Assembly (NCBI RefSeq): GCF_003334405.1
Contig: NZ_QOWM01000001.1
Strand: one strand, 5' to 3'
DNA from: Escherichia coli
GTDB taxonomy: Bacteria; Pseudomonadota; Gammaproteobacteria; Enterobacterales; Enterobacteriaceae
Length of the DNA: 64,000 nt
In this document: piece after piece, positions 52,485 to 52,849 of the stretch
Layout: each line of letters begins with the position of its first letter
How positions within the stretch are numbered: the stretch's first letter is position 1
Made by a program: the position numbers and the translations under genes
The notes under the pieces: model-generated
Databases searched by the model: none
Told to the model about the DNA's origin: nothing
The model's input: the letters and a program-made list of their open reading frames with translations, nothing else

Positions 52485-52849
52485 GATTTTATTCCATTTT
52501 GATTGATTTGTTACAAATATATATTACCTAATGAAATAGACTATCAAAAAACGCTCATTTATTTAGAACCTATCTTTAATTTGAGTGTATGAGCGCACAA
52601 TAGCCAGGGGGGGGGAGTATCCTGGAAATGCAGAAAAGTAAACTCTTTGAGAAGGACGAGCAGAACGCCTGAAAATATGCCTTTCCCTTCAGGTTTGTCT
52701 GTGGATACCGCTTATTGATTTGAAAGGGCAAGCTGCCAACAGGCTGTTTGCAAAACTCAGGAGGTAAGCAATGAGGACACTACTTTCGGTGAAGTGGGGG
52801 AGTTAAAGTCACCTGCTATGCAGGTGACTTTATCCAGGCGAACGCGTTA

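Follow-up and report, generated by a model that had tools for sequence, protein, structure and literature searches.

A nine-G tract of variable length in the fadL-yfdF spacer of Escherichia coli, probably a neutral mononucleotide microsatellite

The tract and the fadL-yfdF spacer

The DNA analysed was a 64-kb stretch of an Escherichia coli genome (64,000 nt of contig NZ_QOWM01000001.1, RefSeq assembly GCF_003334405.1), referred to as the window. Within it, fadL and yfdF are both encoded on the minus strand and are separated by a 365-nt spacer that is 100% identical to the spacer of K-12 MG1655, W3110 and many other genomes. The yfdF gene, which is named icaT in one RefSeq genome, is a cryptic type III secretion substrate gene. 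Nine consecutive G residues, in the sequence context ccaGGGGGGGGGag, were found in this spacer upstream of yfdF, exactly where an earlier reading of the letters without database searches (the sequence-only reading) had placed them. The features of the locus are as follows.

51293-52837, no strand assigned: yfdF/icaT island, ~1.5 kb, with edges placed from the empty-site genomes Nissle 1917 and SCU-171
51426-52484, minus strand: yfdF (icaT) coding sequence, 352 aa, AT-rich (~30-35% GC)
52607-52615, no strand assigned: hypervariable mononucleotide repeat, here a G9 homopolymer that reads C9 on the coding strand of yfdF and fadL
52804-52832, minus strand: hairpin with 13-nt arms and a 3-nt loop, shortly after the fadL stop and borne by the island
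52850-54166, minus strand: fadL coding sequence, with a 24-nt in-frame deletion relative to K-12

The G9 tract lies 123-131 nt upstream of the yfdF ATG (52484) and ~235 nt downstream of the fadL stop (52850). Its counterpart in NC_000913.3 is C9 at 2462881-2462889; that record carries no annotation between fadL and yfdF, and the RefSeq annotations of other genomes show no feature at the tract. Together with the adjacent T and G bases, the segment that varies among strains measures 9-11 nt and is bounded by CCA and AGTATCC. The GC content climbs at the tract, from ~30% in yfdF and its promoter to ~44-48%.

Against random sequence the tract is unremarkable, as G9 or C9 arose in 21/100 dinucleotide-preserving shuffles of the window. 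Among the G/C runs of the real 64-kb window it is an outlier: five runs reach 6, lengths of 7 and 8 do not occur, and a single run reaches 9. The G9 is thus the only G/C run longer than 6, and its uninterrupted length falls in the range (about 8 or more) at which slippage is expected.

The whole fadL-yfdF spacer, including the tract and the hairpin after fadL, is island DNA. The island was present in roughly 4,270-4,300 of the 5,426 complete E. coli genomes searched, and yfdF was absent from ~1,130-1,150. At the empty site of Nissle 1917 and SCU-171, mlaA is joined to fadL by a 61-nt spacer with a shared hairpin. The possibility that the tract marks a boundary of the island was rejected, since the edges fall at ~51293 and ~52837 and place the tract ~220 nt inside the fadL-proximal edge. 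The island is taken as horizontally acquired. Terminal inverted repeats and target duplications were looked for at the island, as IcaT is said to resemble a transposase, and none were found; no NCBIfam family model matched YfdF.

The hairpin at 52804-52832 is a probable fadL terminator. Its centre (loop at 52817-52819) occurs in two forms, GCTATGC in K-12-like genomes and GCATAGC in O157, D/F-like and other genomes. The two are mutual reverse complements, which looks like a small inversion of the hairpin tip rather than independent substitutions. Copies of IS1 and IS5 were also seen in or near the spacer in several otherwise K-12-like genomes (FORC_042, at 2777-3474 of locus L017; H41 and H42), so that disruption of the spacer is tolerated.

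A reading in which the tract lies inside a coding sequence or structured RNA (a small upstream ORF, the remnant of an island gene or an sRNA), so that changes in length would act as frameshifts or structure switches, can draw on two observations: a 51-aa ORF with a TTG start crosses the tract on the minus strand (52576-52731), and the stretch of island from the fadL hairpin to the tract is of ordinary GC content. This ORF, the sole one spanning the tract, was rejected on the grounds that alleles of 8, 9, 10 and 11 nt coexist in closely related strains (see below) and would break any frame. A scan of positions 50000-55500 against Rfam at E <= 1 gave no family at the tract and one spurious miRNA match elsewhere, and the annotations of NC_000913.3 and the other genomes are equally empty here. 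The coding or RNA reading is therefore barely credible, and the tract is taken as intergenic and free of coding or structural constraint on its length.

Length and composition among strains

Alleles of the tract were counted by exact match to short queries in the 5,426 complete genomes, with the site being present in ~4,130 of them. The counts were as follows.

G7: 45 genomes
G8: 290 genomes
G9: 902 genomes
G10: 135 genomes
G11: 35 genomes
G8TG: 346 genomes
GGGTGGTTTG: 412 genomes

The lengths of the pure runs were stepwise and unimodal, from G7 to G11 with a mode of 9. A similar range was obtained from metagenome contigs, in which a pattern scan revealed 107 loci and at least 16 alleles, among them G7 (1), G8 (10), G9 (23) and G10 (6). 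Mixed alleles, namely G6-9 followed by TG and G5-8 followed by TTG, were seen beside the pure runs. For 17 loci sampled evenly down the ranking of spacer similarity, nine alleles were found between the conserved CCA and AGTATCC: G9, G8, G8TG, G9TG, G6TG, G6TTG, G5TTG (the form in O157:H7), GGGAGGTTG and GGGTGGTTTG. The flanks of these 17 loci differed by a few substitutions only. Some lengths were consistent within a lineage: E. coli W and its derivatives, including LY180 and KO11FL, have G8 (four records), and ATCC 8739 has G10 (three records). A tract with at least 16 alleles could be of use for fine-scale typing within phylogroups A and B1.

The same-strain records gave a more mixed picture. 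NCTC86 has G9 in CP019778.1 and G10 in LR217818.1. NEB 10-beta has G8 and the DH10B reference, which represents its parent lineage, has G9; this is the sole indel between the two across ~23 kb. Other K-12 derivatives with G8 are DH5alpha, NEB Turbo and Dam/Dcm, and a C600 assembly has G10. The MG1655 assembly CP025268.1 also has G8 at the tract, as against G9 in other MG1655 sequence. In the same assembly, evgS carries an extra C in a C6 run (C6 to C7; ~42927 of locus L130, window ~40819) and is annotated as frameshifted. The extra C is likely to be a homopolymer assembly error, which weakens the G8 call of that assembly. As assemblies of one strain disagree, and at least one of those involved contains other homopolymer errors, some of the database calls that differ by one base are probably homopolymer miscalls; part of the ±1 variation may accordingly be technical and inflate the apparent instability.

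These disagreements (NCTC86, CP025268.1 with its spurious evgS base, and NEB 10-beta against DH10B) are also what can be said for the run itself, or its exact length of nine in the window, being a sequencing or assembly artefact. Set against this, exactly nine G residues are found in 902 complete genomes, among them the independent MG1655, W3110 and DH10B references, and in 23 metagenome contigs, and the lineage-consistent lengths of E. coli W with its derivatives and of ATCC 8739 represent real biological variation. An artefact in the window is thus very unlikely. The sequence-only reading had offered two accounts of the tract, artefact or length polymorphism by slipped-strand mispairing, and had proposed that tract length be compared across strains. 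In that comparison the length does vary, with pure runs of G7-G11 and interrupted alleles, and the polymorphism is borne out by complete genomes, short-read metagenome contigs and haplotypes with identical flanks; the artefact account fails for the tract and holds in part for individual ±1 calls. At NC_000913.3 2462881-2462889 a homopolymer miscall can easily be mistaken for a true strain difference and vice versa, and ±1 calls there in K-12 resequencing or long-read assemblies need confirmation at the level of the reads.

To compare alleles on a common background, 116 sequences were sorted into groups with exactly matching 300-nt flanks. The group with K-12-type flanks comprised G8 (10 sequences), G9 (20), G10 (1) and G6TTG (8), and the B1-type group comprised G8TG (9), G6TG (2), G10 (3) and G9 (1). 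Two smaller groups were likewise mixed. Every flank group carrying GGGTGGTTTG, GGGAGGTTG or G5TTG was invariant. Non-modal alleles accounted for 30/62 sequences in the long-run groups and 0/22 in the short or interrupted groups (Fisher p = 1.3e-5, the test counting phylogenetically related sequences as independent and including ±1 calls of which some are possibly technical). Many flank haplotypes that diverge from one another carry the allele GGGTGGTTTG, as does L016, the locus with the greatest divergence of all. Only 71 genomes fell one difference away from GGGTGGTTTG (95-99% identity), compared to 866 for G9. Long runs therefore vary and short or interrupted ones are stable, as would be expected of a mononucleotide microsatellite, whose instability grows with length. 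An exponential rise of indel rate with homopolymer run length has been reported for E. coli (PMC8510543).

The tract and the yfdF promoter

The yfdF promoter contains a functional MxiE box, as shown by reporter assays in S. flexneri and by mutational tests (PMC9769918, PMC9241512). H-NS keeps the gene silent in E. coli, and its expression requires either a supply of MxiE plus IpgC or the loss of H-NS (PMC9769918, PMC9241512). The box is TGAGCGTTTTTTGATAG and lies 73 nt upstream of the start codon (Table S2 of PMC9769918). In canonical MxiE promoters the box, GTATCGTTTTTTTANAG, occupies -49 to -33 (PMC3299695, PMC9769918, PMC9241512), and fragments from -57 to +11 (~67 bp) are enough for MxiE-regulated activity in most of the canonical regulon promoters tested (PMC3299695). 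Two promoter elements were placed in the window on this basis.

52541-52557, minus strand: MxiE box of yfdF/icaT, TGAGCGTTTTTTGATAG, intact, from the window sequence and Table S2 of PMC9769918
52516-52521, minus strand: putative -10 hexamer TATATT, from the canonical MxiE promoter geometry (PMC3299695) applied to the window sequence

By analogy with the canonical promoters, transcription of yfdF would start near 52508-52510, which would put the tract at about -98 to -107. The tract is located 50 nt upstream of the MxiE box, outside both the 17-bp box and the minimal promoter of -57 to +11. The yfdF/icaT promoter resembles the Shigella MxiE-regulated promoters in belonging to that class and in having its box intact; it differs in that the G9 has no counterpart in the described architecture. 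None of the elements from a scan for consensus promoters and terminators overlapped the tract, and the scan gave as many sites as expected from shuffled sequence. The promoter tuning implied by the G8/G9/G10 fusions that the sequence-only reading had suggested thus finds no support, for although an MxiE box is near, the minimal MxiE-regulated promoter does not extend to the tract.

A regulatory role was weighed in its broader form, in which the tract acts in cis as a phase-variable or tunable element and a change in its length would alter transcription of yfdF/icaT. This could operate by two routes, through a shift in helical phase or distance between some upstream site and the MxiE box, or through movement of the GC-rich edge that bounds the AT-rich, H-NS-bound block. 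Several observations fit such a role. The tract coincides exactly with the rise in GC content (~30% to ~44%), a functional activator box follows 50 nt downstream, and tract length differs among near-identical strains. Poly-C and poly-G tracts upstream of activator-dependent promoters are a cause of phase variation elsewhere, as in the fim genes of Bordetella and in opc and porA of Neisseria.

The comparison with these loci also reveals where the likeness ends. The tracts of B. pertussis fim2/fim3 (poly-C) and N. meningitidis opc/porA (poly-C/G) share with the yfdF tract a length of ~9 or more, a position upstream of an activator-dependent gene and a length that depends on the isolate. In fim2/fim3 and opc/porA, the tract sits between the activator site or the -35 and the -10 element, such that each base alters the promoter geometry. 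Known phase-variable promoter tracts are flanked by promoter elements on both sides, whereas the yfdF tract precedes every defined element, the first of which, the MxiE box, follows 50 nt downstream. It occupies neither a spacing-critical promoter position nor the inside of an ORF, as a contingency locus would, and its resemblance to the Bordetella and Neisseria tracts appears only superficial.

Further points weigh on the same side. Most canonical MxiE promoters can do without sequence beyond -57; in most E. coli, which have no MxiE or IpgC, the gene is silent and there is no obvious selection for switching; stable interrupted alleles are carried by many lineages; and the alleles differ not only in length but also in composition, a pattern that fits drift. 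The reporter fragments published for yfdF include the tract region, as judged from the primer (PMC9769918), and leave room for a regulatory contribution. Taken together, a phase-variable or tunable element is quite unlikely. There is only a very slight chance that in lineages with the invasion plasmid (Shigella, EIEC), or where H-NS silencing is relieved, tract length sets the level of icaT or the probability of its being on or off; a route for this could be a shift of the H-NS filament boundary or bridging geometry relative to the MxiE box. If true, the tract would act as a contingency switch on the chromosome of the E. coli/Shigella species, with a type III secretion substrate under its control. 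It would be of biological importance only if its length affected icaT/yfdF expression, and nothing in the present data suggests so.

Origin of the tract and other differences from K-12

The account that we favour, with good confidence, is that the G9 tract is a neutral, hypermutable mononucleotide microsatellite in a non-coding spacer. The ancestral state was likely a stable, interrupted G/T-rich motif, CCA-GGGTGGTTTG-AGTATCC. Changes of T to G at the edges of the G blocks would have fused these into one long run; such steps are plausibly run-extending substitutions by transient misalignment. Once the run had reached ~6-8 G, slipped-strand mispairing in replication would add and remove single G:C pairs, giving the distribution of G7-G11 with a mode of 9 and the mixed G/T alleles. 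Since a search of one-genome-per-species contigs for the DNA pattern in outgroups gave 0 matches, the ancestral state rests on the diversity within E. coli. As the tract is outside the minimal promoter, and the promoter is silenced by H-NS and dependent on MxiE/IpgC, with the activator being absent from ordinary E. coli, the length changes are most likely selectively neutral and without a part in regulation.

The closest described parallel is provided by the indel hot spots at mononucleotide runs in E. coli, such as the runs of 8 G:C pairs in leuP/Q/V/T (PMC8510543). Common to both are an uninterrupted G:C run of at least 8, changes of ±1 base and an instability that is steep with length and attributable to slipped-strand mispairing, normally fixed by mismatch repair. 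The two differ in that mutation rates were measured at the hot spots and population polymorphism is observed here, and in that the present tract is intergenic with indels of no obvious phenotype. Mutation of a fadL/yfdF homopolymer was reported neither in the main texts of the literature searched nor in the supplements of PMC8510543. The polymorphic locus is thus new to the searched literature, and the kind of repeat is well known. Read as above, the locus would illustrate cleanly how a bacterial microsatellite is born in nature, from a stable interrupted G/T motif to an unstable pure run.

The window was also compared with K-12 outside the spacer. Relative to three K-12 records (DH10B, NEB 10-beta and MG1655 CP025268.1), four substitutions were found in ~15 kb, at 62207, 59536, 56538 and 50993, and the window is therefore a close relative of K-12 and not MG1655 itself. 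At 62207, in the yfcU pseudogene region, the window has G and the three K-12 records have C, C and T. The 10.2-kb CPS-53/KpLE1 prophage (intS to torI), which follows argW in K-12, is absent from the window. At the corresponding junction (49112-49127), which adjoins tRNA-Arg(CCT) at 49113-49187, two K-12 alignments overlap by 16 nt, as would be expected for an att site that is unoccupied or was precisely excised.

The 24-nt deletion in fadL is at window ~53579 and removes QSPAGQTQ, residues 197-204 of the precursor. It is located between two TGGCCAAA direct repeats. Among the top matches listed from the 5,426 complete genomes, none was contiguous across the deletion junction, each of them being split into two aligned pieces that together span 145 nt. 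The RefSeq product name of FadL identifies it as the phage T2 receptor, and the deletion could be a phage-resistance or laboratory-selected allele.
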